This document shows positions 1,491 to 36,100 of a stretch of DNA of 64,000 nucleotides, in pieces (position 1 is the stretch's first letter; each line of letters opens with the position of its first letter). This stretch comes from an uncultured virus (IMG/VR IMGVR_UViG_3300025128_008688) (lineage: Duplodnaviria; Heunggongvirae; Uroviricota; Caudoviricetes). Position numbers and translations under genes: made by a program. The DNA lies in IMG/VR virus record IMGVR_UViG_3300025128_008688. One strand, 5' to 3'. Under the pieces are notes generated by a model, which saw nothing but the letters and a program-made list of their open reading frames with translations, made no database searches and had not been told where the DNA came from.

Positions 1491-2460
1491 AGACATTATC
1501 AAAGAATATGGTAATGTCCTTCACGATCCCGCCTCAATAACAGAAAGACCTTTAGAAGTCTTGTCTGTAGGCCCAAAGCTAGACATAGCTCTCGGAGGAG
1601 GCGTGCCTGAAGGTTCATTATTTATTATGACTGGCCCAGAGAAGGTCGGCAAGACAGTAACAGCTCTGACTTTCTGTGCCAATGCGCAGAAGCATTATGA
1701 GAGGAAGATTTACTACGCGAACATAGAGGGAAGACTTAAGAAAAGAGACTTAGAAGGAATAACAGACCTTACATTAGACTCAGAAAAGATGCAAATTATT
1801 GGCTCAACAGAAGGAAACATTCTGTCTGCCGAAAAGTATCTGAGCATTATTGACAACATTGTTCATACTCAGCCGGGATCTCTAGCTATTGTGGACTCAT
1901 TTTCTGCATTGTCAAGCGAATCTGAACTTACAGGAAACCTAGAAGATGTTCAAGTTATGAGCGTGCAAAAAGTTCTGGCTAAGTTCTGTAGAAGGATTTC
2001 TAACGTACTGCCCATCAATAGAGTCACTGTTGTTGGAATTACCCACCTGATGGCTAATATGAATAGGTTTGGGAGGGGGAAGACTAAAGTCGAAAAGTCA
2101 GGAAGCGCATTAAAATATCAGGTTGATGTAAAGCTTCATGCGAGCCACTCAACGGCTTTGATGCAAGGAGATACTCAGATAGGCCAGACTGTGCACTGGC
2201 AGATTACGACCTCAGCTATCGGGCCTCCGGGGCAGAAGGTAGAGAGCCATATTAGATATGGTAAAGGCATTTGGAAAGAAATGGAACTGACAGACTTGCT
2301 TATCGACTTCGGGCTCATCAGCAAAGCTGGAGCTTGGCTAAAGCTCCCTAATGGAGAAAAGATTCAAGGTAAAGTCAACTTGGCCAAATACTTAGAAGAG
2401 AACCCTGAGCAGTATGAGACATTTAGAAAAGAAGTGTTTGAAATGGTTGGTATGGAATGA
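1483..2460 (+). CDS. recA: RecA/UvsX-like recombinase
   Basis: LDIALGGGVPEG, Walker A GPEKVGKT, Walker B IVDS, SGSALKY, and KAGAW C-terminal motif. Confidence 0.9.
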   Translation: MNKDIIKEYGNVLHDPASITERPLEVLSVGPKLDIALGGGVPEGSLFIMTGPEKVGKTVTALTFCANAQKHYERKIYYANIEGRLKKRDLEGITDLTLDSEKMQIIGSTEGNILSAEKYLSIIDNIVHTQPGSLAIVDSFSALSSESELTGNLEDVQVMSVQKVLAKFCRRISNVLPINRVTVVGITHLMANMNRFGRGKTKVEKSGSALKYQVDVKLHASHSTALMQGDTQIGQTVHWQITTSAIGPPGQKVESHIRYGKGIWKEMELTDLLIDFGLISKAGAWLKLPNGEKIQGKVNLAKYLEENPEQYETFRKEVFEMVGME

Positions 2461-2855
2461 TGGATACAAAGTGCTCCCAAGCCTACGAATGCAAGATATT
2501 CATAGGTTCAAAAAACGAATACTTAAAACAATATTTCGATAGAAGCATATTGCTAGAATATATACAAGGCTTTCAGGACAACTACCATAAACTTATACCA
2601 GTGCGAGTAACAGGGACGGAATTTGTATGTGGGAGCAAGTATCAGGAGTCAGGTTGGGAAATAGCTGTTATAAACTACCCTAAGCTAGACCTTTGCATAG
2701 AAGAAATCGAATATTTCTGCGAACAACTAACGGAGTATCTTACAGACCGTCTAAGGCAAAAGAGAGTCACCCTCATGACTCCAAGCATTAGCACTATGTA
2801 TTACACTCCGTTATGCTTTCCACAGTCGGCAAGTAGTAAGGCTGCCTCGCCTTAA
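2457..2855 (+). CDS. hypothetical protein; last ~13 codons overlap RNA motif copy A
   Basis: 132-aa ORF, ATGA overlap with recA; stop TAA 2853-2855 lies in a predicted RNA stem. Confidence 0.6.
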   Translation: MMDTKCSQAYECKIFIGSKNEYLKQYFDRSILLEYIQGFQDNYHKLIPVRVTGTEFVCGSKYQESGWEIAVINYPKLDLCIEEIEYFCEQLTEYLTDRLRQKRVTLMTPSISTMYYTPLCFPQSASSKAASP

Positions 2856-2884
2856 CTAAGGCTGTGCGACAACTTAATGAGGTA
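2815..2884 (+). ncRNA. putative pseudoknotted structured RNA motif, copy A
   Basis: GCTTTC; P1 CACAGTC(2821-27)/GGCTGTG(2860-66); P2 TAAGGC(2837-42)/GCCTTA(2849-54); loop TGCCTC pairs with GAGGTA(2879-84) after a 12-nt linker; covaries with copies B and C. Confidence 0.75.
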
Positions 2885-2889
2885 CTTAG

Positions 2890-3306
2890 ATGAAGATACG
2901 TGATCTGAATAATGATATTCACAAATGGAATCTGCAGGGGTATGTTGTTCGTGCAAATGAACAGCGTCCCCGATCTAAGTTACATCTTGCCGCAAGAAAC
3001 ATATTGATAGAAATGTTTCCCACTGTTCAGATATTAGAAGAGGTTCTAATTCCAATAACTCGCAACGAAAGAGGTTATCTGGATTTTTACATCAATACGC
3101 TTAAGCTTGCTGTAGAGGTTCATGGGCAGCAGCACTATAAATTCAATTCACTATTCCATACATCTGCCCAAGATTTTGCAAATCAACGAAAAAAAGACCG
3201 GCGAAAGCAGGAGTGGTGTGAGTATAATAATATAACGTATCTTGAGTTACCTTATAATGAAGGCATTGAGGAATGGAAAACGCGAATAGTCCAAAGGAAC
3301 GACTAG
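2890..3306 (+). CDS. DUF559/Vsr-like (PD-(D/E)XK-related) endonuclease
   Basis: YLDFYINTLKLAVEVHGQQH...DRRKQEWC motif; SD GAGG 7 nt upstream. Confidence 0.7.
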   Translation: MKIRDLNNDIHKWNLQGYVVRANEQRPRSKLHLAARNILIEMFPTVQILEEVLIPITRNERGYLDFYINTLKLAVEVHGQQHYKFNSLFHTSAQDFANQRKKDRRKQEWCEYNNITYLELPYNEGIEEWKTRIVQRND

Positions 3307-3761
3307 AGCAAGTAGATAAAGTCTTAGACGAATATGAGTCAGGGCTTGGACTTGTGGGCTACGCCGGAGACTTTCACGACCAGACTGTGAAGTCATACAT
3401 GAAAATGGAGAGAGTGCAAATGGAAAAGCTTACGGTAGAGGAATGCGCTGAAGCAGCACTTCTACTGGGTGGGTTTTCATTCTATCTTCAAAGGTCTTAC
3501 AATAGAGAAATTGCTAGAGTTAATTGGGCCTCCTCCAACTTAAAAAAAATGATAGCCGGAAGAGAGCGCCAGTACAATGGATCATGGGACAGTCAATACT
3601 ACCAAGCGGTAAAAGACGACAGCTATGCGATTAAGCTAGAAAGCATAAAGACATACGCTCAACAAAGGGCTGATAGGCTTACCTACCTAGCAAGCTCCAT
3701 CAAAAATCTAAGTGACCTATATATAAACTTACAGAGAGCAAAGATAAATAAACATGGTTGA
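3273..3761 (+). CDS. UvsY-like recombination mediator (tentative)
   Basis: 162-aa helical/coiled-coil protein close to the recA/uvsX-like gene; based on size and context only. Confidence 0.4.
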   Translation: MENANSPKERLEQVDKVLDEYESGLGLVGYAGDFHDQTVKSYMKMERVQMEKLTVEECAEAALLLGGFSFYLQRSYNREIARVNWASSNLKKMIAGRERQYNGSWDSQYYQAVKDDSYAIKLESIKTYAQQRADRLTYLASSIKNLSDLYINLQRAKINKHG

Positions 3762-4137
3762 TAAAAAAGAATTACTCAAACTTCTTTCTGAGCTTTCTCC
3801 TGAGGAACTTGAGTCCATAATGCCTAAGAAAAAACGTAGGCGGGGCAAGGGTAAGAGAAAAAAGAACCGATCTGCGAATAAGCCCAGTGCTTCTGAAGAG
3901 AATAAATTTGACGACATGCTGTCTAGCATACGATTTACAGATGAGGAGAAAAGAGAGCTTGAAGAAGCTACTAAGGTAGATGATGAGGCTGATCAAACGA
4001 AATCAGTCTCTGCTCGTCCTGCTGCCTCTACGGTAGAAGTTACTTGCTGCGCCTGTAATAAAAAGTTTATCGTATCGCCATCTGTGGTATTTTCTGTAGA
4101 CAGATGGAAATGTAACGCTTGTATAACAGGGAGATAA
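3754..4137 (+). CDS. hypothetical protein with basic tract and C-terminal zinc ribbon
   Basis: KKKRRRGKGKRKK; CCAC...CNAC. Confidence 0.6.
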   Translation: MVDKKELLKLLSELSPEELESIMPKKKRRRGKGKRKKNRSANKPSASEENKFDDMLSSIRFTDEEKRELEEATKVDDEADQTKSVSARPAASTVEVTCCACNKKFIVSPSVVFSVDRWKCNACITGR

Positions 4138-4138
4138 T

Positions 4139-5584
4139 ATGCTTAACGATCTACCAGCAGAAAGAGCTGTCCTAGCAGGAATATACCGATATGGGGCAGA
4201 GACATATTATGATGTCGCAGACATAATAGATGAGTCCTCTTTTACAGACGATTCAAATGCTGTAATATTTTCCTGTATGAAGCGTGTCCTAGAAACAGAT
4301 GACACTGTCTCCCTAGATATCCCTACGATGCTTTCCGCAGCAAAGGAAATGGGTTTAGAGACTTTCTTCAACACTCAGGAAGTGCAGCACTTATCTTCTA
4401 TTACTAAGTATCCAGTCTTAGCAACTAACGTCAGGAAGTTTGCTGCTAAGGTCAAGAAGCTTGAGATAGCAAGGATGATGTATGACCAGCTTGAGCTAAC
4501 AAAAGAGAAGTATCTCGAAATAAAAGGAGACGAGCCCATAGCAAAAATACTTGGGCTAGCTGAAGACTCAATTATGGAAGTCACAGGTATGGTCTCAGGA
4601 ACAGATGAAGCTCCAACGCAGATGTTTGACAACATTGTTGAATATTTAGAAGAGCTCTCTGAGGAGCCTGTTGATCAGATAGGGATCTCTACTGGATTCC
4701 CAAGGTATGACTTTGCTATCGGAGGAGGTCTTAGACGCGGCACGGTCAATGTGATTGGAGCTCGACCTAAAACCGGTAAGACATTGCTAGCAGACAACAT
4801 GGGGGTACATATAGCTAAGCAAGGTGTTCCTGTGCTGAATCTTGATACTGAAATGAGGAAAGAAGACCATCAGCACAGACTGATGGCTATGCTAACAGAC
4901 GTTCCTATCAGCGAGATAGAAACAGGTGCTTTTTCTCGAAGTCCTATAGCTAAGAGGAAGGTAGAACAAGCTGCGAAAGAAATAACAGATATACCGTATT
5001 ACTACAAATCTATTGGAGGCTGCTCATTTGAAGAGCAACTATCAATCGTAAGAAGATGGCTGAACAGAGTTGTAGGTCTTAACGACAAGGGAAAGGCTAA
5101 CGACTGTGTGATTATATATGATTATCTGAAGCTTATGGACTCCGCTGAGATTAAAGGAGATATGAAAGAATTTCAGGTTCTTGGCTTTATGATGACAGCT
5201 CTCCATAATCTATCATTAAAATATGAGATACCTATACTTTCCTTTGTACAATTAAACAGAGACGGCATAAACAAGGAGTCAACAGATACTGCCTCTGGCT
5301 CAGATAGAATCATATGGCTGTGTTCTAACTTTACGATATATAAGAGTAAGTCAGATGAAGAAGTAGCTAAGGACGGTCTTGAGAACGGAAATAGGAAGCT
5401 TGTCCCCGTAATCGCTAGACATGGACAAGGACTTGAAGACAGAGATTATATTAACATAATGCTTAAAGGAAACTGCGGTAAGATAACAGAAGGCAAAACT
5501 GCTTTTGAACTTGATAGTGCCGTAAGTGCTGTAGAAGAAGGTGATTTCTTTGATGAACCAGAAGACGACATCCCGTTCAAGTAG
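4139..5584 (+). CDS. dnaB: DnaB-like replicative helicase
   Basis: AERAVLAG N-terminus, GISTGF, Walker A GARPKTGKT, IYDYLKLM, QLNRDG, acidic DDIPF tail. Confidence 0.92.
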   Translation: MLNDLPAERAVLAGIYRYGAETYYDVADIIDESSFTDDSNAVIFSCMKRVLETDDTVSLDIPTMLSAAKEMGLETFFNTQEVQHLSSITKYPVLATNVRKFAAKVKKLEIARMMYDQLELTKEKYLEIKGDEPIAKILGLAEDSIMEVTGMVSGTDEAPTQMFDNIVEYLEELSEEPVDQIGISTGFPRYDFAIGGGLRRGTVNVIGARPKTGKTLLADNMGVHIAKQGVPVLNLDTEMRKEDHQHRLMAMLTDVPISEIETGAFSRSPIAKRKVEQAAKEITDIPYYYKSIGGCSFEEQLSIVRRWLNRVVGLNDKGKANDCVIIYDYLKLMDSAEIKGDMKEFQVLGFMMTALHNLSLKYEIPILSFVQLNRDGINKESTDTASGSDRIIWLCSNFTIYKSKSDEEVAKDGLENGNRKLVPVIARHGQGLEDRDYINIMLKGNCGKITEGKTAFELDSAVSAVEEGDFFDEPEDDIPFK

Positions 5585-6710
5585 TGGATATGATTATTCT
5601 AAGATTAATGCTCTTTGCAAATATGCAATGCAATATCTAGATGAGATATACTCGTACTTTGGAATATCCGCTGCCTACAAAAATGAGGTGCTGGTTAAGT
5701 CTGTTTGCCCTATTCATGGTGGAGACAATGATACCGCCCTTAACATGTACTACAATGGGGATTATAAAATACACTACAAGTGCAGAACCCACCAGTGCGA
5801 AGAGATTTTTGGGAACGGATTCATAGGCTTTATAAAGGGCTGTATATCTAGAACTAAATATGGCTGGGAAAAAGAAGGCGACAAGGAGGCGACATTTAAA
5901 GAAGCTGTAAATTTTTTAACAGGCTTCCTAAATCAAGACCTAAGCAAGTTTGAATCCTCTAGTAAGAGTGTAGAGAAGATGAAGTTTGGAGCTATGGTCA
6001 ATGCCATTTCTTCAGATGCCCCAAAAAAGAGTGGGATTACTAGAGAGCTGTACCGATCTAGGGTTCAAGTGCCTTGTGAGTATTATGTCAAGAGAGGGTT
6101 CTCGTCACAAGTGCTCGACGAGTATGATGTTGGCTATTGTGATAATCCAAATAAACCTATGTTCGGAAGAGCAGTGGTTCCTATATATGACAACAACCAT
6201 GAGTTTATCGTAGGATGCACAGGTAGGAGCGTGTTTGAGAAGTGTCCAAAGTGTTCAGGCTATCATGATCCTACTAAAAAATGTCATCATTCTCCGAAAT
6301 GGCTTCACAGCAAAGGATTTCAGAAGCAAAAATGGCTGTATAATTATTGGACAGCTAAGGAGCATATATCCAAAACGGGCGTTGCGATTCTAGTTGAATC
6401 TCCCGGAAATGTTTGGAGACTTGCTGAAGCTGGCATAAGGAATGTAGTTGCGATTTTTGGAACAGCATTTAACAACGACCAAAAGAACTTACTAGATGAA
6501 TCTGGAGCGCTGTCTCTGATATGCCTTATGGATAACGATGAGGCTGGCAAGAAGGCAGCAAAGAAGATTGAAGAGCAATGCTCTAGGCTCTATAGAATAT
6601 ATTTCCCTAGCTTTGATGCTTCGGATATTGCAGAACTTAATGTTGACAAGGTTACGTCTGACATTAAACCTTTTATTGAAAACGCCATGAATATTTATAA
6701 GGAGATCTAA
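5541..6710 (+). CDS. dnaG: DNA primase (zinc finger + TOPRIM)
   Basis: CPIH...CRTHQC zinc-binding domain, ILVESPGN, VAIFGT, MDNDEAG TOPRIM motifs; follows the helicase. Confidence 0.88.
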   Translation: MISLMNQKTTSRSSSGYDYSKINALCKYAMQYLDEIYSYFGISAAYKNEVLVKSVCPIHGGDNDTALNMYYNGDYKIHYKCRTHQCEEIFGNGFIGFIKGCISRTKYGWEKEGDKEATFKEAVNFLTGFLNQDLSKFESSSKSVEKMKFGAMVNAISSDAPKKSGITRELYRSRVQVPCEYYVKRGFSSQVLDEYDVGYCDNPNKPMFGRAVVPIYDNNHEFIVGCTGRSVFEKCPKCSGYHDPTKKCHHSPKWLHSKGFQKQKWLYNYWTAKEHISKTGVAILVESPGNVWRLAEAGIRNVVAIFGTAFNNDQKNLLDESGALSLICLMDNDEAGKKAAKKIEEQCSRLYRIYFPSFDASDIAELNVDKVTSDIKPFIENAMNIYKEI

Positions 6711-6959
6711 ATGACTTACAGAGAAAGTGCTATTGAGTTTCTATGGAGAAGCGCACTAACTGACCAATCAAAAGCACTCGCATCGCTACAGCTTCTGCTG
6801 GATCACGGTACAGGTATCGGAGACCATTCAACAGAAGACCTGCACTCAAATCTTGAGGATGCGTTATCTACGCTTGCTGACGCTGAGGATAGACTTGAGA
6901 CTTTAAATAAATACTTCCGTCCGCCAGAGGGCGAAGAGCAACAGTCAGAGGAGGTATAA
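6711..6959 (+). CDS. small hypothetical phage protein
   Basis: 82 aa, strong AAGGAG RBS, GIGDHS motif. Confidence 0.6.
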   Translation: MTYRESAIEFLWRSALTDQSKALASLQLLLDHGTGIGDHSTEDLHSNLEDALSTLADAEDRLETLNKYFRPPEGEEQQSEEV

Positions 6960-6961
6960 CT

Positions 6962-7735
6962 ATGACTCAAATTCTAGGCTTTGCCGGCAAAAAACAAAGC
7001 GGCAAAAATACTTTATGTAACTATATAGTAGCTATGAAGCTGGCTGAGCTTGGAATATGCTCTGAGTCTAGACTGTCAACTTCCGGAGACATAGAGATTA
7101 CAGATGTATTCGGGGAGAAAAAGAAAGGTGTAGAGTGGATTCCGTTTTCTCAGGAAAACATGAATGTAGAACTACTAAGGACAGAGCATCTGGATAAGTA
7201 TGTGAAAATTTATGGCCTTGCAGATACACTCAAGGATATGTGTGTTAATATTTTAGGGCTCTCTCACGATCAAGCATACGGTACAGATGAGGATAAAAAC
7301 TCAAACTCTACCATCAAATGGGAGGATATTCCTACTTGGGAAAACAGCAGCCTAAATAAAAACAGGGGCTTTATGACCGCTAGGGAAGTGCTCCAGTATG
7401 TGGGTACGGATATATTTAGAAAGCTAGATCCAGACGTGTGGATAAAAAGTCTATTGAGAAAAATAGAAAAAGACTCTCCTGAGCTTGCTCTTATATGCGA
7501 TGTTAGATTTGAGAATGAAGTCTTGCACCTTAAAGATGCTGGGGCTACTGTAATTGGTCTCACAAAAGATAAGTTCAAGGGTCAGGATGTACACTCTAGT
7601 GAAGCGTTAGTGCAGGATGCTCTTGATAATTGCTCCTTCCTTATTCAGAACGAAGATATGACAATACAGCAGCAGTGCCTCAAGCTTTATGAGATACTAT
7701 CTGACAGAACCAATCTCCTTCCGAAGGTCTTATAA
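6962..7735 (+). CDS. deoxynucleoside monophosphate kinase (T4 gp1-like)
   Basis: GFAGKKQSGKNT P-loop, TAREVLQYVGTD, ICDVRFENE. Confidence 0.85.
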   Translation: MTQILGFAGKKQSGKNTLCNYIVAMKLAELGICSESRLSTSGDIEITDVFGEKKKGVEWIPFSQENMNVELLRTEHLDKYVKIYGLADTLKDMCVNILGLSHDQAYGTDEDKNSNSTIKWEDIPTWENSSLNKNRGFMTAREVLQYVGTDIFRKLDPDVWIKSLLRKIEKDSPELALICDVRFENEVLHLKDAGATVIGLTKDKFKGQDVHSSEALVQDALDNCSFLIQNEDMTIQQQCLKLYEILSDRTNLLPKVL

Positions 7736-8773
7736 ATGTCAATACCTATAGTCTACTTTAGAAGTAGCTCTTTCAACTCACACAGAATGTGTCCTATGCA
7801 ATATTACATGGAATATACTCTTGGTTGGAGAGGGTCATCTGGAAAGAAAGCTGACAAAGGAACTATTGTTCATAAGGTTCTTGAGTTGTGCGCACTTGCA
7901 AAGAAAGCCTTGCAAGATGGTCATGAAATTTTTAAAGATAATGAGATTGGTGAGATAGAAACTGCTAACTATGATACAGAATATCTAGATGAAATTATTG
8001 ATAGGGTATACGAATATTATACATCTAGAACTACACATCATGACTGGAAGCCATTAGACCTAAAGCATTGCCGAAAATGGGTTTGGAAAATATTCAATGA
8101 CGACGACGGATTCTTTGATCCTAAGAACAGAACAGTTGTAGAAGCAGAACCACACTTTGACTTTGAAGTAGATGAAGAATGGGCAGAATATAGTTATACC
8201 TTAGATGATGGTACCGTCTTGGAGGGGAAGCTAGCGCTAAAGGGAACAATAGACCTTATAACAGATGTGGGAGACGGAGTCTATGAGATAATAGACTGGA
8301 AGACTGGCCGCAGACTTGACTGGGCTACAGGAAAAGAAAAGACGATGGCAAAGTTGCAGAAAGATCCACAGCTAAGGATGTATCATCTAGCATGCAAAAA
8401 GCTTTACCCAGATGTAGAAACATTTTTAGTAACTATCCACTTCATGAATGACGGCGGTCCTTTTACACTCCATTTTCAAGATAGCGATATACCTGAGACA
8501 TTAGAGATGATAAGGGCAAAATTTGAGACAATTAAAGACACTAACTTTCCTCAACAAATAAAGTCATGGAAATGCAGCAAGCTTTGTTCTGCGGGAAAAA
8601 CCACATACGAAGGAACAGATGTCAAAGTCATGGGCAACATGTTTGGAGCTCCGCTAACAAAGTGCCAGCAGACAGAAGCTATGATAAAAGAGAACGGAAT
8701 AGAGTGGGTGACAAGTAACTGTATGTCCCCAGAACATGAAATAGGTAAGTATAAAGCTCCCGGAGAAGTATGA
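7736..8773 (+). CDS. Cas4/RecB-like PD-(D/E)XK exonuclease
   Basis: SSS..CP, GTIVH, KGTIDLI, IIDWKTG, QLRMY, C-terminal Cys cluster. Confidence 0.85.
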   Translation: MSIPIVYFRSSSFNSHRMCPMQYYMEYTLGWRGSSGKKADKGTIVHKVLELCALAKKALQDGHEIFKDNEIGEIETANYDTEYLDEIIDRVYEYYTSRTTHHDWKPLDLKHCRKWVWKIFNDDDGFFDPKNRTVVEAEPHFDFEVDEEWAEYSYTLDDGTVLEGKLALKGTIDLITDVGDGVYEIIDWKTGRRLDWATGKEKTMAKLQKDPQLRMYHLACKKLYPDVETFLVTIHFMNDGGPFTLHFQDSDIPETLEMIRAKFETIKDTNFPQQIKSWKCSKLCSAGKTTYEGTDVKVMGNMFGAPLTKCQQTEAMIKENGIEWVTSNCMSPEHEIGKYKAPGEV

Positions 8774-10119
8774 TGTACGCAACAGAGATTAGTCGAGGAA
8801 GGAAGCTGCTAATACCTAAAAGCAACATACAGGCAGAACAGTTTATTCAGAAGGAAGCAGCGTTCTTTATGTCCTGTGTTAATGCTTATATAAGGGAGCT
8901 ACTAGAGTGGATAAACATATCTGACTTTGAAGTTACTGGCATAACTGATCATGGAGAAGTGTACCTAAGAGAAGAAGATAACGGTTTCTTTGTTGGGCCA
9001 AACGGAGGGTTCTTCGCACCAATAACAAAGAGAAAGAATGGAGAGCCGTTTGCGAAACCAAAGTGGAGTGATACACAGCTAAAGGCGATGTTTTGTAATG
9101 TATTTAATGAGACGCATACTCATGATTCTTGCGCGTCTTGGAAATTAAATATTATTGCTAACGGTGCTAATAAGATAAAGTCCTCTATAAAGCGATTCAA
9201 AAAGAGGGGCGACTCATATGCTGATTATATCAAAGACATGAAACCGCCTGTTATAACCAACCCTACTATCTGCCACAAAAAGGCTTTAGCAAAGATTAAA
9301 GATGATGCCTTAGTAATAAGAGGGGCTAACAAACAGGAGGTCAAGATAAAAGACTTTTTTATACCCTACAAAAAGTATACAAAAGTTCATAAGAAGACAT
9401 TTGGAGGAAACTTAGTTTTATCGAAAAAGAAAAATAGTAAGCATAACGAATACACTATAATGATCAAGTGCAAAAAGCATTTCTATTCTCCTTTAGGATG
9501 GATAGGTATGGACATAAACAAATACAACCCTGAGTGGCTTGCCATAGCGGAAGATGCCAAAGATGGTTTCTACAACATACTTCCTAAGCCTGATAATATT
9601 GATAAGATAGAAAAGATTAGAGATGACATAGACAAGATGATCGACAACAAGGAAAGATCATCAGGATCGACTAAGAGAAGAGCAAGATTAAGAAAAGCAA
9701 AAGATAGGGCTGTATCAGCGTATAGAAGAGAAATCAAAAAGTTTTTACTCCCGATGTTAGACTTCGTACAGTTATGTCGATTTGGACTTTGCTTAGACGG
9801 TGTTGCTACAAAAGGAAGAAGCTTTGGTCAGCAAGAAATAAATTCTATACTTGAGAAAGAATGTATAAAGAGAAACATTCCCTTTGCTATGACAAATCCT
9901 AGAATGACTACTAGGTCTTGTTATTATTGCGAAGAGAATAATCCTAGGCCTAAAACCTCTGGGCCAGATGCGGGAGTCTACATTTGTGGAAACCCTCTTT
10001 GTCCTAAGTTTGAGTCTAGGGAAATTCCCCATGTAAATGCCGCTAGAAACATAGCAAGGCAGGGTAAGAAACGCTTTCTAGAGTCGGCGGTAGAAGAGGG
10101 TATAGCTAGCCCTGCTTAA
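8770..10119 (+). CDS. tnpB: TnpB/Cas12f-like RuvC + zinc-finger protein with non-canonical active site
   Basis: RuvC-I WIGMDIN; Arg-rich bridge helix KRRARLRKAKDR; RuvC-II LCLDGV; NPRMTTRSCYYC..YICGNPLC zinc finger; RuvC-III PHVNAARNI; 449 aa. Confidence 0.8.
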   Translation: MMYATEISRGRKLLIPKSNIQAEQFIQKEAAFFMSCVNAYIRELLEWINISDFEVTGITDHGEVYLREEDNGFFVGPNGGFFAPITKRKNGEPFAKPKWSDTQLKAMFCNVFNETHTHDSCASWKLNIIANGANKIKSSIKRFKKRGDSYADYIKDMKPPVITNPTICHKKALAKIKDDALVIRGANKQEVKIKDFFIPYKKYTKVHKKTFGGNLVLSKKKNSKHNEYTIMIKCKKHFYSPLGWIGMDINKYNPEWLAIAEDAKDGFYNILPKPDNIDKIEKIRDDIDKMIDNKERSSGSTKRRARLRKAKDRAVSAYRREIKKFLLPMLDFVQLCRFGLCLDGVATKGRSFGQQEINSILEKECIKRNIPFAMTNPRMTTRSCYYCEENNPRPKTSGPDAGVYICGNPLCPKFESREIPHVNAARNIARQGKKRFLESAVEEGIASPA

Positions 10120-10144
10120 GGCTCTACGATAACATAAATAGCTA
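10073..10144 (+). ncRNA. putative pseudoknotted structured RNA motif, copy B (overlaps tnpB-like 3' end)
   Basis: GCTTTC; P1 TAGAGTC(10079-85)/GGCTCTA(10120-26); P2 AGGGT(10097-101)/GCCCT(10109-13); loop ATAGCTA pairs with TAGCTA(10139-44) after a 12-nt linker. Confidence 0.75.
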
Positions 10145-10148
10145 CTAG

Positions 10149-10225
10149 CCTTTCTACTGTCGGGCATATAGTTAAGTGGGCGACCAGCTTAAACTGAGGC
10201 AGTACGTAATTCTTATTGGTCGCTT
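10149..10225 (+). ncRNA. putative pseudoknotted structured RNA motif, copy C (tandem with B)
   Basis: CCTTTC; P1 TACTGTC(10155-61)/GGCAGTA(10198-204); P2 TTAAGT(10172-77)/GCTTAA(10187-92); loop GGGCGACCA pairs with TGGTCGCTT(10217-25) after a 12-nt linker. Confidence 0.75.
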
Positions 10226-10240
10226 TTAAAAGGATGTATA

Positions 10241-10786
10241 ATGATAAAGCTAGACTTCACAGAAGAGATGGTGAAAAGTGCTAGAGAAAAAGCACAATCT
10301 CTCGGGGCCATAAATAACTCTATACTCAAGGGCGGTGGAAATGTTGCCGGATACCTTGGAGAGGAGGCTCTTGCTCCGTTTATCGGCGCTGAAATAGTCA
10401 GTAACAATAGAGGTCTAGATAAGTACAATCATGACCTACTCCTACAAGATGGTCACAGAATAGAGGTTAAAACAAAAAGGAGGACTGTCGCGCCAAAACC
10501 TTACTACGACGTATCTGTTGCCAAAACAAGCAAGCACCAACAGCCAGACATATATGCTTTTATTAGTATAGAATTTCAAAGGGCTAGCTCAGGGCATCCT
10601 AAACAATATTTCGGACTAAAGAACATCTGGCTATGTGGATTTATGGGCGCACACGACTACTGGGATATGGCAAAACTGTGGAAAAGTGGACAAATTGACA
10701 AAAGAAATAACTTCAAAACTCATGTTGACATGTATAATTTAGAGATAGCGGATTTACACAAAGACTTGTCAGGAATACTTGTATGA
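10241..10786 (+). CDS. restriction-endonuclease-fold (PD-(D/E)XK) protein
   Basis: GYLGEEAL...HDLLLQDGHRIEVKTK catalytic-type motif. Confidence 0.6.
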   Translation: MIKLDFTEEMVKSAREKAQSLGAINNSILKGGGNVAGYLGEEALAPFIGAEIVSNNRGLDKYNHDLLLQDGHRIEVKTKRRTVAPKPYYDVSVAKTSKHQQPDIYAFISIEFQRASSGHPKQYFGLKNIWLCGFMGAHDYWDMAKLWKSGQIDKRNNFKTHVDMYNLEIADLHKDLSGILV

Positions 10787-12642
10787 AATACGTACCTTTA
10801 CACGTGCATAGCGAATACTCATTACTAGACGGATTATCTAAAACATCAGATATTTACAGTCGTCTAGAACAAATAGAAACAGATGCATGTGCCCTAACCG
10901 ATCATGGAAGCGTCAGTGGCGCTGTTGATTTTCATAAGACTATATCCAAGGGATACAAACCTATTCTTGGGTGTGAGCTTTATCTTTCCACGCAGAGTGC
11001 AAAAATAAAAGAGCCCGACAATTCTAAGCTTATGCATCAAGTTGTTCTTGCTAAAGACCTAGAAGGATGGAAAAAGCTTCTAGCTCTTGTTTCTCAAAGT
11101 AATCGACCAGATAATTTCTACTACAAACCTAGAATAGGTCTCGATGAGTTCTTGCAGAGCTGCGCATCTGATTACTCCTTAGTATCATTCAGTGGTCATT
11201 TGGGATCTAGACTTGGGAATTTATGCTTGAACAATGCTGACTGGAGAAGAGATGCCGCAAGAGAGGCAGAGAGGATGCAGGAGTCTTTTGGCAAGGGAAA
11301 CTTTTTTATAGAGATCCAGCTTATAGACTCGCTAATAAATAAAGAAGCAAAAGAAGTTGCAGAGAAGTTAAGAGAGATAGCTAATATAACTAGGATACCT
11401 ACTGTTGCCACCCCCGATGCACACTATTGCAGAAGAGAAGATGCTCATGACCAAAGGGTCCTTTTGTGTACTGCCCTTAGGAAAAGCATAGGTGAGATAC
11501 AGAGGGAAATAAAGCAGGGCAAGTCAGCAGCTATGGAAACCTTCTTTAAGTCTGACAACTACCATATTCCTACATATGAAGAAATGAAAGAGCACCATAC
11601 AGATGAAGAGTTAGATAATACTCTAGCTATAGCCGATATGTGTTCTAGCTATGAAATATTAGGGCCTCCTAACCCTCCTGAATTTAAATGCCCTGACGGA
11701 ATGTCTCCTAATGATTATCTCCGGGCCTTATGCAGAGATGGTTGGCGCACAAAAATGGCTCATGTAACAAAAGGTGATGAGCTTTTCTTAGGCTATGGGC
11801 AGCGGGTAGATAAAGAGATAGATATTTTTACTGAGACCAATCTCTCTAGCTACTTCTTGATAGTGCGAGATATCGTCGAAGAAGCTACAAAAAGGGGATA
11901 CCTAACAGGGCCGGGAAGAGGAAGTGCAGCAGGATGCATGGTATCATACCTCATGGACATAACACAGATAGATCCATTAAGATATGATCTTATTTTTGAG
12001 AGATTCTACAATGCCGGACGTAATGCCGGAGGAAGAGTGTCAATGCCTGATATTGACATTGATGTTCCAAAGCAGTCTAGGTCAGAAATAATTGAGTACA
12101 TCAAAGAACAATATGGCAAAGATAATGTAGCTCAGATTATTACATTTCAGACACTTAAAGGAAGGGCGGCTCTAAAGAGAGTAATGGCAGCAAGAGGCAA
12201 TATAAGCTTTGACGAGCAGAACGCTATTACCTCACACATTATTGATGAAGCCAAGATTTCTGATGAACTACAGGATATGAGAGATGAGCTAGGAACTGCC
12301 TCGGTTATATCTTGGGCTTTAGAGAACAAGTCTGACAGTCTAAGAGAGTGGTGTGAGGTCGGTGAAGACGGGTCTTTAAATGGTAAGCTCTCTAAAATAT
12401 TTGAACAAGCGATACGCCTTGAAGGCACTAAGATTATTCAGTCTAAGCATGCTGCTGGCGTTGTAGTCTCTCCTCAAAGAATATATGATGTATGTCCTAT
12501 GGTCATAGATAGAGAAGAGAAGGGTATGCTAGCTGGCTTCGAAGGTCCTAGCTGCGAAGATGTTGGTCTTCTAAAGTTAGACATACTAGGAATCAAAATG
12601 CTAGATAAAATTATGGATGTCTCGGAAATTCTAAAAGTATAA
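10783..12642 (+). CDS. dnaE: DNA polymerase III alpha, N-terminal part (PHP + palm)
   Basis: LHVHSEYSLLDG, ALTDHG, GPGRGSAAG, FERF, MPDIDID, KHAAGVV, LKLDILG; stops shortly after LKLDILG. Confidence 0.92.
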   Translation: MKYVPLHVHSEYSLLDGLSKTSDIYSRLEQIETDACALTDHGSVSGAVDFHKTISKGYKPILGCELYLSTQSAKIKEPDNSKLMHQVVLAKDLEGWKKLLALVSQSNRPDNFYYKPRIGLDEFLQSCASDYSLVSFSGHLGSRLGNLCLNNADWRRDAAREAERMQESFGKGNFFIEIQLIDSLINKEAKEVAEKLREIANITRIPTVATPDAHYCRREDAHDQRVLLCTALRKSIGEIQREIKQGKSAAMETFFKSDNYHIPTYEEMKEHHTDEELDNTLAIADMCSSYEILGPPNPPEFKCPDGMSPNDYLRALCRDGWRTKMAHVTKGDELFLGYGQRVDKEIDIFTETNLSSYFLIVRDIVEEATKRGYLTGPGRGSAAGCMVSYLMDITQIDPLRYDLIFERFYNAGRNAGGRVSMPDIDIDVPKQSRSEIIEYIKEQYGKDNVAQIITFQTLKGRAALKRVMAARGNISFDEQNAITSHIIDEAKISDELQDMRDELGTASVISWALENKSDSLREWCEVGEDGSLNGKLSKIFEQAIRLEGTKIIQSKHAAGVVVSPQRIYDVCPMVIDREEKGMLAGFEGPSCEDVGLLKLDILGIKMLDKIMDVSEILKV

Positions 12643-28896: not shown

Positions 28897-31800
28897 TTAA
28901 CCACATCCGGGATTAGCACAATCACAGAATCCACCATCATTAGTTATTCCTTTGAACAAGCCACAGTCACTGAAGTTTAGAGTGACATAGTTAATTGACA
29001 GTTTATCACCCGTGCAGCATACATCTCTAACGACTGTTATTCCAGTTGAAGTTCCTCCAGCACAGAAAGGATCAAGCTCAATATCTATTCCACATGCGTC
29101 ACCTGCAGTTGCAGTAGCCTTGATGCCACAACCAAAGTTGAAATCCTCTATAGGTCTAGAGAAGTTTCCTGAGCAGGCTGTTACGTTGAAATATGTTCCG
29201 ATATTTTGCACGCAAGCATTTGTTCCATTTTTGACAAATGCTATACCCGGACCTGCACCTATCGTTCGTATATCTTGATTGACGCTGGGCGCTGACAATG
29301 CAGTGAACGCACCGCATGCTAGCTTTCCGTTATACTCTAAAGGTATTGCATCTAAGAAATAATCACAGCTTCCTGATGCAGTAAACTTAACACCATTTCT
29401 AGCAAAAATATTCCTAAAATGATTATGCTGGGCATTAGTAGGAGAACTGGTTGGATCTCCGCAGCCGTCTTCACTAGGGACATTAGCAAGGCCCATGTAA
29501 ATATCAACAGATGCGGTGCCATCAGCAGAAACCTCACCTATCCTTAAACCTGTCCTGAAATCAACGCAACTAACACCTTCGCATGATGTTATCGCTCCTG
29601 CAGGTGTACATGCCGCTGTGTCTTTAATTGGTGTGCATGAGTGAATTGTAAACTCACATGCTTTCGCAGCGTTAGCCGCACCTTCGTCAATGACGCTCAT
29701 GCCACTACCAAAGTTCAACTTGGAGAAGAACTTGTAATCAAAGTCATCGTCTGGACTGCAATAGCTAGCGGTAGACTTAATATAGTGATCAGCAGAAATA
29801 CCGTACTCACATTTGCCACCAGCTATTTCATGAAGGCGAAGGCCTGTTCCGGCAACAAGTGTCCTGAAGTAAGTTCCTCCAAGACTGAGGTCTGCTGGTC
29901 TAGATACAGTAGGTGTCCATCCGCAATATGCCTCGTCTCTTATAAACCTTTCAGTGTGAATATTGTACTCGCAGTTACTGCCTCTTAGTATGAATCCAGT
30001 GCCGAGTGTAAGCTGATCGAAGTGAACAGGACCATCAACACTTCTGGTGTTGTTACAATGCTGGGTAGAGTCTATTAATCTTCTGGCATTAACTATTGTT
30101 GTCTTAAAATCTGGAGCAGCTCTATATATTCTTAATCCAGTTCCATAGGTTGTGCACTCAGTATCGCTACATGCATTTATAGGGGCCTCACTAGGAGTGC
30201 TCGGAGGCGTATATCCGCAGTATCCTGAGCCTCTAGTTTGATGGACTGAGCCACTTCCGCTTCCACCTGAACCACAGGCAAATATATGATACTCACAATC
30301 TCCTCCGGTTACGCCTATACCCTCTCCAAAGAATAGGTGCGTGAATGGTTGCTTATTGATACTAGTGCTTGTATCCTCGCACGTTGTATCTGTAGATGTT
30401 ATATACTGAGGTGCAGCTATCTCGTAATTACAATTGCCAAGATCTGTGACTGCAATACCCGTGCTAAACTTCAGATCCTTAAAGAACTTTTTACCAGCTA
30501 TAGAAGCTAGACCACAGTTGGCGCCATGACTAATAGTTCTGTCAGAGTCAATTGTGAACAAGCAGTCCGAGCCTTCAGATATGACAAGCCCAGAACCAAA
30601 TTCTAGCGTCTTAAAGAACTCAGCGTTGGTTTCGGTATAACAAGTAGCATCAGAGTGTTTAATCGAGTGATTAGCATCAATTCTATACGTGCAATTCGAT
30701 TCTGCTTTTAAGTTCAGACCAGAACCTAAATTCAATGTATTAAAGTGAGCTTCAGCAACCGCTGATTCACCGCATGTACTTGTCTTCTTAATCTTTCTAT
30801 ATGCAGAGATATTAAATTCGCAGTTAGAGGCTGAATCAACCTTTATACCAGAACTAAAATTAAGTGTTCTAAACTGAGTCTCAGCAACCGCTGGCACACC
30901 GCAATCAGCAGTTTTCTTAATCTTAAAGTCGGCATCTATAAAGTACGTGCAGTCTCCAGCATCTTGCACTCTGAGTCCGCTTCTTGCCTTCAATGTCTTA
31001 AAGAATGCGTCAGATATGGTAGTTGGCTGGTTACAAGAAGTAATATCGGTAATATAGTGATTTGCATTTACTCGGTACTGACAGTTACCCATATCCTGCA
31101 GATAAAGACCTGTACCAAAGTCCAGCCTATTAAAGAACTCGTATGAGCCTACTTTATGATTGCTCTGGCAAAGATTAGTATCTTTTACATAATGATCTGC
31201 TTCTATTGAAAAATCTTTACAGTCACCTTCCGTAAAAGCATTGAGCTTGAGCCCTTTATCAAAGGCTAGGTTTCTGAATAAATTTCTGCCGTTTACAGAA
31301 GGGTTATAGTTGCAATAACCAGAATCTTCAACGGTTACATTTAACCCTATAACAAAGTCGCAGTCCGAAGCATCAGAGACCTTAATACCACTTGTGAACT
31401 TAAGATCTTGGAAGAATTTCTTATCTACTTCAACACCATCGGATTCGCAAGGATCTGCAGATATAGTCCTATCAGAATCTATGTTGAATGCACAAGTACC
31501 CGTGCTGTCAATTGTAAGGCCGGAACGGAATATTAGCCTGTCAAATATAGAAGCGGCACTGCTGCCTCCTGCACAAACTCCAGAATCTTCTATCCACATT
31601 GGAGATGTTATTTCAAAGTCACAAGCATTCTCATTTGCCTGAACAACCAGACCAGTGCTGAACTTAAGGTGTCTAAAGAACTTATCGCTTACCGTGTCTC
31701 CACTGCAATATGGTGCTGCGCTAATATTATGGTCTGCATGGAATGTATAATTACAATCTCCAGTATTTTTCAGATAAAGACCTGTTCCCGCAACGATAGT

Positions 31801-33100
31801 CCTAAAGAAGTTTTCATTAGGATAACTCGAAGTCCTTCCACAATAGTCATCTCCTCTGACAAATCTTTCTGCACTTATTTCATAACCGCAATCAGATCCA
31901 CCACTCTCAACTATAAGCCCACTCTTAAACGACAAATCAGTGAACACCGCATTAGTTACTAAATCCCTTCCGGGAGGACAAGGATGAAGGTCTGATATTT
32001 TGAAGTCTGCATCTATTGATGCTACACAGTCTTCCAACTCAAGCTTAAGACCTGTACCTACGACAATATCATCAAAGAAAGAAAACTCTCCCGTGCCATC
32101 ATCGCCACATGGAGACGACGCTATCTCGTGCTGGGCATCAATCGTGAAGACGCAGCCATCTCCACTCACAGATAGACCAGAACCAAATTTTAGCTCAGTA
32201 AAGAACTCGTTAGATACAAGGTCGCCGTTTCCGGTATTGGTGCAGTATCCCTCATCTGACACAGTATGGTCAGCATGAATTGTCGGATTGCAACTATCTG
32301 ATCCTGAGGCTGTGCCGACGTATAACCCACTTCCAAAAGTCAGACATTCAAAAACATGACAGTCGGAAGACCCCGTCCCGTTACCTACTCCGCAATACCC
32401 CTCGCTAGCAACTTTATAAGGTCTGGCGTGAACAGATATAGACTGAGTGCAAGACTCCCCTGTCTCTCCTGTATATACATTAAGACCCGAGCCAAAGTCT
32501 ATATGAGTGTACTTAACACTCGGAACCCCTGCTCCCTCTCCGGCTTTTATCTCCGCATAGCCAAGCTGATCTTCGGCAACCGCATCATCACATTGACCGC
32601 CAGTTAGACTACTAGCTGTGCTTATAACAGAAACTCGCGCGACTCCACAGTCACCACCGCCCTCTTCAGAGGCGCCACCCGCAAGACCAAACCCAAACTC
32701 TATAGACTGGGCTGCAGATGAGCCTTCACCAGAGCATACGGTAATATCTATACCTGCCAAGGTTGATATATTGAATTCAGTTTCACAATCAGTCTCTGAT
32801 ATAGTGAAACCTGTACCAAAAGTTAAATGAGTATATGGGAAACATATATCTGTATCTATCAGTCCGCTTTCAAATTCCTCTCTTTCAGCTCCAGTCAGTC
32901 CTGTCGGTATACAAGGTTCCACAGAAGAAGACAAGGTTAGGTCGCTATTAATCCTGAGCGCAAACATAAAATCGCCAGTATTTGTACCTGTCTGACACAT
33001 GGTTCCGCTTTTTATGTCGTCCGACGCAGGAAAGCCATCTTTAGGTATCTTATAAATCTCAGCAAAGACACCAGTTCCAGCTACTAAAGGAGTCTTCAAG
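28897..33100 (-). repeat. ~28 degenerate ~40-aa protein repeats
   Basis: consensus F-x-x-L-x-F-G-[ST]-G-L-x-[VL]-x(4-5)-C-x-[YF]-x-I-x-A-x-H-x-I-x(4-5)-C, counted by eye. Confidence 0.8.
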
Positions 33101-36100
33101 TCCCAGCCAGTAATAGGCGATAAAGCACTTATTGTGTTTAAATCTATAATCCCAGTATCTGAACAGGCTCCAGATTGATTGCCAGTTGCACACTGATGCC
33201 AATTCAAGACATCTACACAGAATGAAGGAGCACCTGCCGTGATAGGGTGATAAGCGCACTCTTCACTGTCCCAATAAGCTAAGACACTAGTGCCAGACTC
33301 TAGTGTTCCAGCGCCTGCAAGAGTATTACTGATCTTTATATTGTATCCAGTCGTAGGATGAATAAGTCCGCCCTCTGAGTCATAGGCTGGTCTAGGGTTA
33401 CTGATACGAGCATCTCCGGTCATGCCTCCTTCAATCACTCCAGTCCCAATTTCAGCGTGAATTATTCTAAAGCTATTTGGAACTGTCCATACTGCCCTTT
33501 CTCTGTCATACCTTAGATCTAAAGGCGCTACAGGCCAAGTCTTGGGCTGACGTAGCCACTTATCTAAAAACTTATCCTTCAGTCCAGCAGTTGTAAAATT
33601 CCCCGCTTCGGCATTGCTAACAACATCCGCCTTATTAGGTACTGGTTTTCCTTCTAGGTCATATCCCCATCCTTGAATAAGTAAAGGACCTCTGGTTGCA
33701 ATAGCTCTAAGGTCTTGGGGATAGTTTCCAGTTCTGAGATTATGCATGTAGGTGTCTGGACTGTCTGCTCCAGAGCCGTGATTTAATCTCCTTACATTAT
33801 TATTACCATAGCCAGTGTGGTTAGGGTCATCTGAATGCTTACTATTATGATAAGTATAATAAGGATCTAGATAATCTATATTAATAGCGGGAGGGGTCCA
33901 GTCAAGGATAGGTGGGTTTACTTGTCTAGTGTTAGATCTATAAGCCAGAGGCATTGGCGACTCGCCAGTAGGGCATGCCTCCCCGTTTTTACTAGCATAG
34001 CGAGCAAGATGACTATTATTGGGTGCTGTGCCTGATTTACTTATGGGTAAATACAGAGCGTCCCAACTGACGAAAGAACCACTGTCATCAGGAGGTGTAT
34101 TCTTATACGTGTTACTGGATGGTGTGCTAGCATCTACAACCGGATCTTCTGAATGCGCAGCTACCCACTCGGGCTTTGCATTGGTTTGAGTCATAGCTAG
34201 AAGCTGACCGCCAGCATTTTCTACATTCTTTGCATCCTCAAGGGCCTTAACACTTCCTTTAAGACCTTTAATCTGTTTATCATGTTCAGCAAATTTCTTA
34301 TTCTGTTGATCCCTAAGCCTCTGGTCTCTAAGCATCGCTTGACGAGCTTTAGCAATTCTAGCAAGCCTATTGGCATTGTACTTAGCAAACTTACCGAACG
34401 TTGGTGCAAACGTATTGCACTGAATCGTTGTTGTTACTCCACCAACACCAATGTTTGCGGAAATATTAGTGATACTGGGCCCAAGTGTACCAGCCCAAGC
34501 TTCTGTATCGTAAAAGAAGTATGGGATGGCTATACCGCCTACTACGAGACTAGCCTGCTGAAGGCTAAATGTATTGAAACTTTCTAAGTCAGCATTAAGC
34601 TCTTGCCCTAATCTCTTCTTTGGGTATCCGGGCATAGTAAATGTACCCTTTTCGCCCTCTTGCATAAACGTAGCGCCATCTGCGGCTAACGTAAATCCTG
34701 CTTGCTGCATCTGTGAATAGCTATCATGTGTCCAAGGATTGAGAGAGGAGTCTTCTCTAAAAGACACCTGACCGGGAGGACCTTGAGCAAACCAAGGACC
34801 ATACCTATCGGTATTACTCTTCATCGGAAGAGCTACGCCACTAGGAACAAGCCTGTCAGGAGCTTCTGCCTTCGCATAGTCGCCTCTGATACCTTGCTTG
34901 TCACCATCTACCTTCTTCTTAAGGTTCGATATCTTCTCATCGTTCCAATCAGCTGGAGCAAACCCGTGCTTCTCTATAGTAAACAGACCTTTAACGGCCT
35001 TGTCTATATCATCACTTTTTGGCTCAACAGGATTGCTTATCTTGATAACAGCTGCAGCTTTGCCGTTATATTGATATACTTTTTCGTCTGGTGTTGCCGG
35101 AATGTATAGATTGTCATCAAAGACTATTACGCTGTCGGATTGCTCTGCATAAACTCCCGTTCCACTTGCGTCATAGCGTACAAAGCATTGAACTTTTCCG
35201 TCATCGCTCCTGAAGGTTTCGAGCTCAGGATTAGCTGCTGTTGGCTTCCATGTAAGACCCAATACATCAGTTCTTAGGCCAACTCCTTTATTAGTGCTAG
35301 GCCATCCTCCATCTGCTGTAGGATTATCAGAGTAATATACCTTTCCTGTATCTGCATCTGTATAGTAACAAACAAAGGGTAAACGAACAAGGAACTGCTT
35401 GCCCCAATGCTCATCGGCAAATTTAGATACAAAAGCATGTATCTTCTTCATATCCTCAGACTGCGCCTCTGTTAATTTCTGCAAATCGTTCTTGACGATC
35501 TTGGCAATCCCTTGGTCTTGACCGCCCTCTGGTGGATTCTTAGCATTAGCAAAAGGATTATTAGCTACGGGACCATCTTCGTCCTTGAATATAAGAGCAT
35601 ATGCACCAGCTATGAGCTGACCCATAGGAGTCATATTGCCTTCATCCCAAGCGAATATTAAACTTTTCCAAGTATCAAAAGAACCTAATGCAGCCTTTAT
35701 TTCATCTTCATATATGTATACTTGATCTGCCGGTAGCCCATTTTTTAGTCCCAAGTTTAAAGGTCTTAGATCAAGCTGGACTTTCCATTGTTCACCATAT
35801 CCATCTATATCTCCATATACAGCATTAATGAAATTACCATTGGAGTCAAAACCCCAGTGCTGTATTATATCTGTACCTGCAACAGGGTTAGCGGCATCTT
35901 CTTCATATATTGTTTGTATTGGAGAGCCATAGGTAAAGGTTTGAGTAGTCTCATTTCTAAGCTCTCTACCTATATTTTTTGATACTATATCTTCTTGGGC
36001 TTCTATAAAGACTTCTATTTCACCTAGAGTAGGCTGTGTCTTTCTTTTTGCAGTCCTAACCTTAATAACAGTATTCATAGAGCCATCTACTATAAGCTCT

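Follow-up and report, generated by a model that had tools for sequence, protein, structure and literature searches.

What are three similar elements of about 70 nucleotides (nt) doing in the genome of an uncultured tailed phage, and what do they have to do with the gene whose end one of them overlaps? We address this question for a stretch of 64,000 nt (hereafter the window) from IMG/VR record IMGVR_UViG_3300025128_008688 (Caudoviricetes), in which units A, B and C share a common frame of paired segments. We find that the three units are true copies of one structured RNA motif encoded on the + strand. The final 15 codons and the stop codon (10117-10119) of an open reading frame (ORF) for a TnpB/Cas12f-like protein lie within the span of unit B, and on balance the units appear to be the cognate omega-RNA-like scaffold, a non-coding RNA of about 70 nt, of this protein. 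A first-pass annotation of the same letters had recognized the motif and overlooked this genomic context, which proved to be the decisive clue.

Structure and conservation of the RNA units

The units and their paired segments are as follows.

2816..2884, + strand: unit A; CTTTC 2816-2820; helix P1 2821-2827 with 2860-2866; GG 2828-2829; P2a 2834-2836 with 2856-2858; P2b 2837-2842 with 2849-2854; pseudoknot of loop 2843-2848 with tail 2879-2884; linker (CG plus 10 nt) 2867-2878
10074..10144, + strand: unit B; CTTTC 10074-10078; P1 10079-10085 with 10120-10126; P2a 10094-10096 with 10115-10117; P2b 10097-10101 with 10109-10113; pseudoknot of loop 10102-10108 with tail 10139-10144
10150..10225, + strand: unit C; CTTTC 10150-10154; P1 10155-10161 with 10198-10204; P2a 10169-10171 with 10194-10196; P2b 10172-10177 with 10187-10192; pseudoknot of loop 10178-10186 with tail 10217-10225 (9 bp)

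Each unit starts with the T-rich flank CTTTC, followed by the 5' strand of P1 (7 bp), GG with a further 4-6 nt, and P2a (3 bp). The second half comprises P2b (5-6 bp) with its loop of 6-9 nt, A or AA, the 3' strand of P1 (P1'), CG plus 10 nt, and the tail. P2 is interrupted, with P2a stacked on P2b and one bulged nucleotide on the 3' strand. The tail pairs with the apical loop from the last loop base onward. Up to P1' the scaffold measures about 55-57 nt, the whole unit about 70 nt; B and C are separated by 5 nt, and A, B and C are about 68% identical by column.

The sequences, coordinates and loop-tail pairings quoted in the first-pass annotation are all present: P1 reads CACAGTC/GGCTGTG in A, TAGAGTC/GGCTCTA in B and TACTGTC/GGCAGTA in C; P2 reads TAAGGC/GCCTTA, AGGGT/GCCCT and TTAAGT/GCTTAA in the same order; and loop and tail read TGCCTC/GAGGTA in A and TAGCTA/TAGCTA in B. 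Its claim of a linker of exactly 12 nt between P1' and the tail extends beyond A, B and C to all 11 parsed units of close clades and to the unit of the related locus L216, and the pairing of the last loop base with the first tail base holds in A, B and C. The shared TAG that it had listed does exist, not as a conserved unpaired motif but as the 5' strand of P2a, which covaries (TAG/CTA; TGG/CCA in L013; AAG/CTT in B). The few unpaired bases that are invariant in close clades are the T-rich 5' flank, GG after P1, A or AA before P1' and CG after P1'. Distant lineages drop some of these, with GC or CT replacing GG, and with CG absent.

Evidence that this fold is real comes from covariation. We aligned six orthologous units (B-type units and that of L216, taken from related marine phage contigs) with MAFFT and did not fit them to the structure; because the alignment contains no gaps at all, it is independent of the proposed pairing. 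Standard pairs fill 98.4% of its 126 pair cells, compared to 26.2-46.0% when the partners are slid by 1-3 columns. Both sides have changed in 13 of 21 pairs (3/7 in P1, 5/8 in P2 and 5/6 in the pseudoknot), which bears out the earlier claim of covariation in every helix. Compensatory changes are likewise seen among orthologues of unit A. None of 500 shuffles matched the observed covariation score; shuffles ignore the relatedness of the sequences, a weakness from which the slid controls are free.

The strand follows from the same comparison. G-U pairs make up 51 of 536 pairs across 25 parsed units and correspond to A-C mismatches on the opposite strand. Since G-U accounts for roughly a tenth of the pairs, only the + strand can form the fold, as had been proposed. 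Thermodynamic z-scores of single units are ordinary (-0.86 to +0.64) and not better than those of shuffles, so the structural support lies in covariation and not in folding energy.

A covariance-model search, which the first-pass annotation had put forward as a check, links the three units through models built from one unit type at a time. Model R1, trained on C-type units only, recovers A (40.1 bits, E 5.6e-8) and B (17.2 bits, E 0.065), and at E<=10 it finds exactly three copies in the complete record of 125,401 bp of which the window is a part. Model R2, trained on B-type units and the L216 unit, recovers A (45.1 bits) and C (27.6 bits). A cmscan of the window against Rfam 15, whose families include hammerhead, HDV-like, twister, pistol, hatchet, riboswitch, IS605-associated and RAGATH motifs, returned no match at gathering score; around the units, nothing relevant and no riboswitch or ribozyme model appeared at E<=10, in agreement with the earlier remark that the motif does not fit the hammerhead, HDV/theta, twister, pistol, SAH, SAM-II or c-di-GMP-II consensus. 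Over seven related loci, transfer-messenger RNA (tmRNA) was the sole Rfam match at E<=1. A full-length tmRNA gene (RF00023, 83 bits, E 4e-31) occupies positions 188-470 of the phage-like metagenome contig L221, and a distant TnpB-like gene follows about 500 nt downstream.

The TnpB/Cas12f-like protein

The gene that ends inside unit B and the gene before it are as follows.

8770..10119, + strand: TnpB/Cas12f-like protein of 449 amino acids (aa), with RuvC motifs, a zinc ribbon and profile matches
7736..8773, + strand: PD-(D/E)XK nuclease of 345 aa, weakly Cas4-like (TIGR00372 at E 6e-7, under the cut-off)

The candidate catalytic residues of ORF 8770-10119 are D248 (RuvC-I), D343 (at the RuvC-II position) and H421 in the motif HVNAARNI (RuvC-III), and a zinc ribbon of the form CxxC...CxxxxC is present. 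Its own score against the Pfam TNB model is 20 bits, under the cut-off of 26.3 bits. A profile built from the protein and three orthologues found 172 relatives at E<=1e-3 among 1.84 billion representatives; Pfam Cas12f1-like_TNB was detected in all 30 top relatives tested (E<=0.01), 29 of which exceed the curated cut-off. The family profile also matches 30 solved chains of Cas12f, TnpB, Cas12m and CasPhi, the best being Cas12f 9nzq_A (433-aa chain, E 4.7e-16). In the family alignment the RuvC-I Asp is invariant, RuvC-II has an invariant Asp instead of Glu, the zinc-ribbon Cys residues are retained, and the RuvC-III position is His in 13 of 14 members. Judged by these profiles and motifs, the predicted protein belongs to the TnpB/Cas12 superfamily as a divergent member.

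Virus-enriched TnpB branches with a D-to-H change in RuvC-III are described in the excerpted text of Altae-Tran et al. (PMC10691335), where conserved changes are argued to imply retained activity. The largest such branch lacks a zinc finger according to the same excerpt, and we therefore do not equate it with the present family.

The gene is located in a replication and recombination module and is syntenic across clades at 43-48% identity. Its start overlaps the stop of the PD-(D/E)XK nuclease gene, and the two genes are translationally coupled. The pair recurs in L216 (nuclease at 407-1504) and in L217 (nuclease at 282-1334), where two RNA units stand between the two genes. In L218 the first approximately 36 codons (302-409) of the called 477-aa TnpB-like ORF (P0008) overlap the third upstream unit and a terminator-like hairpin; judging from the alignment with other family members, the true start is probably a later ATG.

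The two most distant lineages, in which no units were recognizable, have close downstream neighbors. A thioredoxin gene (Pfam; L240 2641-3045) starts 13 nt after the TnpB-like stop, and in L243 the next gene (2761-3105) lies within about 50 nt of the TnpB-like stop, with a translated start resembling the L240 thioredoxin. Activation of a phage-encoded miniature Cas12 by host thioredoxin is reported in preprint 10.1101/2025.01.20.633832.

Association of the units with the TnpB-like gene

We searched for units in loci of the protein family gathered from metagenomes and IMG/VR, covering 14 lineages, one of which is represented by a locus fragment. A loose structural descriptor was unspecific (about 45 matches in the window), so a stricter one was adopted; over both strands of the 125-kb record it gives seven clusters, three of which are the true units. 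With the strict descriptor, units were found beside the TnpB-like ORF, always on the same strand, in 7 of the 14 lineages (22-48% protein identity). Their placement differs among lineages.

Own clade: two units downstream
G001 and G004 type: two units downstream
L216/G005: one unit downstream
L217: two units upstream, one downstream
L218: three units upstream, at least one downstream
L223/L224/G006: three units upstream, two downstream

Model R2 matches the upstream units of L218 (E 2.4e-4 and 1.9e-3) and, weakly, units of L223 and L217 (E 0.12). Variant, looser units occur in three more lineages (L220, L221 and L225/L227), parsed by eye only.

Genes on the 3' side of the units vary by lineage and include DUF2784, S-adenosylmethionine decarboxylase, Hsp20 and a nuclease-like ORF. 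Two GenBank phages have homologues of the 181-aa ORF that follows unit C in the window, with no unit upstream and no room for one. Because the downstream genes are unrelated and these homologues do without units, the TnpB-like gene is the only constant neighbor.

G006 carries eight units, all on the + strand. Three of these form a remote array 16 kb from the gene, preceded by a promoter-like TTGACT-17-TATAAT and followed by a hairpin and a T-run. Equipped in this way with promoter and terminator, the array shows that a unit can stand alone as an RNA gene. The array parallels unit A, which lies 7 kb from the TnpB-like gene.

A probable partner RNA of the TnpB-like protein

The genes touching units A and C bear on what the units may do.

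2457..2855, + strand: 132-aa ORF, function unassigned; the final 13 codons and the stop fall within unit A
2890..3306, + strand: homing-endonuclease-like ORF, 138 aa (PHROG 9084 / 559), directly 3' of unit A
10241..10786, + strand: 181-aa ORF with a D...EVK motif, PD-(D/E)XK-like by eye; its ATG is 15 nt past the end of unit C

The first-pass annotation had offered three functions, a riboswitch, a self-cleaving ribozyme and a protein-binding RNA, the last of which fits best. The pseudoknot of the units would correspond in topology to that of the ISDra2 type, with the intervening part reduced to a short A-rich linker, and for this reason we take them, with moderate confidence, as scaffold RNA of the TnpB-like protein. 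They would be transcribed within a + strand polycistronic message in this phage and from their own promoter in some relatives. In each unit P1 and P2 would stack into a coaxial hairpin, and pairing of its apical loop with the tail 8-13 nt past P1' would give an H-type pseudoknot with an A-rich linker. The TnpB-like protein would bind this pseudoknot in the way that TnpB and Cas12 bind the conserved pseudoknot of their guide RNAs, and we consider such binding quite likely.

The 3'-terminal 14-20 nt of the unit could then be held by the protein as a guide-like segment, consisting either of the bases past the tail, as in canonical TnpB, or of the linker and tail. At the canonical position, A and C lead into the ribosome-binding regions of two nuclease genes and B leads into the start of C. 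From P1' it is 13-23 nt to the terminator or the following unit; since this is close to guide length, linker plus tail may be an alternative guide, partly masked by the loop. Whether by one segment or the other, a guide function on DNA seems to us somewhat doubtful. What follows the tail in A and in C is the ribosome-binding site and start of a nuclease gene, and binding would for that reason be expected to block translation in cis; repression of downstream genes in this manner is a tentative proposal, slightly less probable than guiding.

Of the features expected of an omega-RNA, a position on the same strand adjoining a gene of the tnpB/cas12 type, typically at its 3' end, is found here in the overlap of B and in 7 of 14 lineages, and the covarying loop-tail pseudoknot may correspond to the one that such a scaffold forms between a hairpin loop and the bases immediately 5' of its guide. 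A 3' guide of roughly 9-20 nt with a sharp boundary and a target next to a target-adjacent motif was not found; the phage's own record and G006 were searched for targets.

Several observations weigh against the partner-RNA reading. No variable guide with a sharp boundary between scaffold and guide was found in the units. A terminator hairpin, a T-run or the next unit follows only 1-7 nt past the tail in L223, in the third unit of L218, in L221 and L220, and between B and C. Single-stranded segments are nearly identical among the units of one record, those of G006 reading N6 + TAAATCGGCAACC. The linker and tail have no second match in the phage's own record at up to 3-4 mismatches, and the target search in G006 gave only chance-level matches with three mismatches. 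Unit A, 7 kb from the TnpB-like gene and directly 5' of another gene, also fits plain cis-regulation. No unit was found in three of the lineages (L226, L240/241 and L243), one record of which is rated 100% complete. An AlphaFold2 model of the protein from a four-row alignment was unusable (mean predicted local distance difference test score 41).

One speculative possibility is that this TnpB-derived protein of lytic marine phages uses arrays of miniature pseudoknots (scaffold of about 55 nt) lacking a conventional guide from the flank, either with a fixed, self-masked guide or as RNA operators on ribosome-binding sites; we regard it as rather unlikely. As operators, the units would hold the ribosome-binding sites of neighboring nuclease genes and, in some relatives, that of the protein's own gene. 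If true, either version would represent a new working mode for the TnpB/Cas12 lineage together with the smallest natural scaffold known for it.

Alternative explanations

The alternative that survives best, itself improbable, is a cis-acting mRNA element independent of the TnpB-like protein, a pseudoknot in the 5' untranslated region that would act on the downstream gene's translation, processing or stability. It could mask or expose a ribosome-binding site, or couple translation to an upstream ORF ending inside the unit. The position of several units is suggestive: the tail of A contains the GAGG Shine-Dalgarno sequence of ORF 2890-3306, and unit C, the L216 unit, the downstream unit of L217 and unit c of G006 end 4-20 nt before a start codon. 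However, what comes after B is unit C, not a gene, the stand-alone array of three units in G006 has its own promoter and terminator, and a terminator hairpin stands behind each unit of L223. Also in its favor, both ORF 2457-2855 and ORF 8770-10119 terminate within a unit (A and B, respectively), and relative to the motif they do so in the same frame. Over three genome arrangements unit A, when present, stays with the endonuclease-like gene; G005, however, has this gene without a unit, the 181-aa ORF homologues likewise lack one, and downstream genes are unrelated across lineages.

As to where upstream ORFs end, the stop lies at 2853-2855 in A (3' strand of P2b and bulge), at 10117-10119 in B (AA junction) and at 2857-2859 in L216 (the linker's conserved TAA). 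In A and B alike, the flank's TTT encodes Phe, the frame being identical; this may be no more than a result of insertion.

The surroundings of unit A also raise the question of mobility. In this phage and in G004 the order is a recA-like gene, the 132-aa ORF, the unit and the endonuclease-like gene; in G001 the 132-aa ORF is absent from this order; and in G005 the recA-like gene is followed by a 121-aa ORF overlapping the endonuclease-like gene (ATGA), with no unit. Because these three arrangements exist, we interpret unit A as an insertion or deletion between otherwise coupled genes, and it keeps its CTTTC flank despite different upstream contexts.

An indel of this type, absent in G005 and set in a different upstream context with the same flank in G001, could be expected of a mobile element acting at the DNA level. 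The units would be single-stranded DNA hairpins of miniature IS200/IS605-type (PATE-/REP-like) elements, with the T-rich flank as insertion target. The number of units between the TnpB-like gene and the next gene (one vs two) and the arrays on both sides of the gene in L217, L218 and L223 could be explained in the same way. Copies within one genome, however, are diverged (about 68% identity by column) and all of one type where left and right subterminal hairpins and near-identical copies would be expected, and a hairpin recognized by a transposase has no need of loop-tail covariation. The units are co-directional with transcription, some arrays with a promoter and terminator, and the TnpB-like gene is coupled to its upstream gene and syntenic at 43-48% identity. 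No Y1 transposase (PF01797) was found in the 125-kb record, which is rated only 52% complete. Taken together, mobility is a shade less probable than cis-regulation.

Less probable again, in our estimation very unlikely, is that the RNA acts on the TnpB-like protein as an inhibitor, as in type III toxin-antitoxin systems; the tandem pseudoknots would be cut into units that each bind and silence one protein molecule. In ToxIN-type systems, near-identical tandem repeats lie upstream of an endoribonuclease toxin gene with a terminator between them. The arrays of two to three units upstream of the gene in L218 and L223, with a terminator hairpin between, resemble this layout; in the window and in L216, by comparison, the units are downstream of the gene. 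Processing could take place at the conserved T-rich flank that precedes every P1, and the excerpted text of PMC10691335 links TnpBs with the RuvC-III D-to-H change to antitoxin-like partners. On the other hand, the phage repeats are diverged, the protein is not a known type III toxin fold, and nothing indicates toxicity.

A riboswitch or self-cleaving ribozyme, which a compact pseudoknotted fold with few invariant unpaired bases might bring to mind, is highly implausible and has no positive support. No Rfam model of either class matched near the units (E<=10) or in the seven related loci (E<=1). The variable unit number speaks against both, and a riboswitch would not be expected in tandem or remote arrays that carry a promoter and terminator of their own, nor to be tied to a single protein family in place of a class of metabolic genes. 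The invariant bases of close clades are partly lost in distant lineages.

Source record, searches and other genes

The record from which the window derives is phage-like with a G+C content of 40.7%, and the phages that carry the units form an abundant marine group. The stretch 2400-10800 is present in sequencing runs of 13 studies, all recorded as DNA or unlabelled, with no RNA runs listed among them. A megablast search of 10 kb of the window and a tblastn search of the TnpB-like protein against GenBank phages gave no match, and ARAGORN found no tRNA.

Pattern scans of IMG/VR provided a view of how widely the units are distributed. A strict sequence pattern matched 65 stretches, in which the true units are 14 loci on 10 contigs of a single phage group. 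A looser pattern matched at least 118 stretches; 80 loci were examined and full P1 pairing was seen in 14 rows, of which, among the matches listed, 10 belong to the same phage group and four are chance-like. No new clade emerged from these scans among the matches listed. Locus searches gave no match with P0007 in IMG/VR or with P0009 in genome contigs and one partial match with P0010 in IMG/VR.

Other features of the window were recorded in passing. A DnaE-type polymerase is split, with the PHP and nucleoside triphosphatase domains in ORF 10783-12642 and the finger and helix-hairpin-helix domains in ORF 13747-15381; between the halves are genes for an RNase T-like exonuclease (12661-13332) and a cytidylyltransferase-like protein (13329-13754). 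G006 has a similar exonuclease followed by the C-terminal part of the polymerase. Two giant ORFs are found on the - strand.

28897..37038, - strand: 2713 aa, without a match in Pfam or PHROG; several families of internal repeats at 29.8-32.2 kb
38662..45771, - strand: 2369-aa tape-measure-like protein (PhageMin_Tail)

Comparison with known systems

A TnpB-type protein with an adjacent RNA, arrays included, is an already known arrangement. The RNA family itself, its small size and its placements appear to be undescribed in Rfam and in the literature found; a literature search of limited extent, which is no proof that the RNA is unpublished, returned no description of it, and the supplements of PMC10691335 may list the branch. 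The units thus define an RNA family missing from Rfam. The gene lies within a replication and recombination module in an abundant group of marine phages, a setting that suggests a domesticated function, RNA-guided or RNA-binding, during development of the phage or in inter-phage competition.

TnpB proteins are the ancestors of Cas12 and serve as compact genome-editing tools, with RNA scaffolds usually of at least 100 nt. A natural family of scaffolds of about 55-57 nt would be of direct interest for understanding how such ribonucleoproteins work and for their miniaturization.

Among related systems, PATE-like IS200/IS605 miniatures also place small copies of an RNA module away from the protein gene, as do unit A and the remote array of G006. 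The phage units are much shorter, have no left and right ends, are not present in multiple identical copies and have no transposase in the record. ToxI-like type III RNAs resemble them as tandem pseudoknotted units beside a protein gene, with an upstream position and terminator in L218 and L223, while the phage units are longer and have diverged, beside a gene for a TnpB-like protein instead of an RNase of the ToxN type.

TldR, known from bioRxiv 10.1101/2023.11.30.569447 (as excerpted), is likewise a phage-borne domesticated TnpB homologue, a repressor without nuclease activity, with a guide RNA downstream. Its guides are given there as 9-16 nt, with short forms of 9-11 nt. The TldR scaffold is single and 97-100 nt long, and its targets are at host promoters, whereas the phage units have no target in their own record or in G006.

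Similar in arrangement are the tandem single guide RNAs of similar sequence downstream of dCas12f genes (PMC13472631, excerpted text) and the omega-RNA arrays reported in the excerpted text of PMC10691335, in which similar scaffold units are found head to tail by a small gene of the Cas12f/TnpB type. According to the same part of PMC13472631, the RNAs of the dCas12f-sigmaE system are 85-105 nt long with a defined 3' guide of 14-16 nt, while the phage units showed no guide or target. That system has a sigma-factor partner in Bacteroidetes and its proteins have lost part of RuvC; the phage locus has no adjacent sigma factor and its family keeps D, D and H.

A further parallel is the ISDra2 omega-RNA, whose pseudoknot, formed by the loop of stem 1 with nt -6 to -2 beside the guide, is described in the excerpted text of PMC10097598 as conserved in all Cas12 guide RNAs. 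The ISDra2 scaffold, as given there, measures 116 nt and has stems 2-4 where the phage units have a linker of 8-13 nt. The phage units are tandem and also found upstream and at remote positions, with no transposon ends or TnpA in the record and no evident guide of 16 nt taken from the flank, and the RuvC residues of their protein are D, D and H, not D, E and D. In both, a hairpin loop forms a pseudoknot with a short 3' segment, the two pseudoknots being possible structural equivalents, and the RNA is encoded next to the gene of a protein with RuvC motifs and a TNB zinc ribbon.

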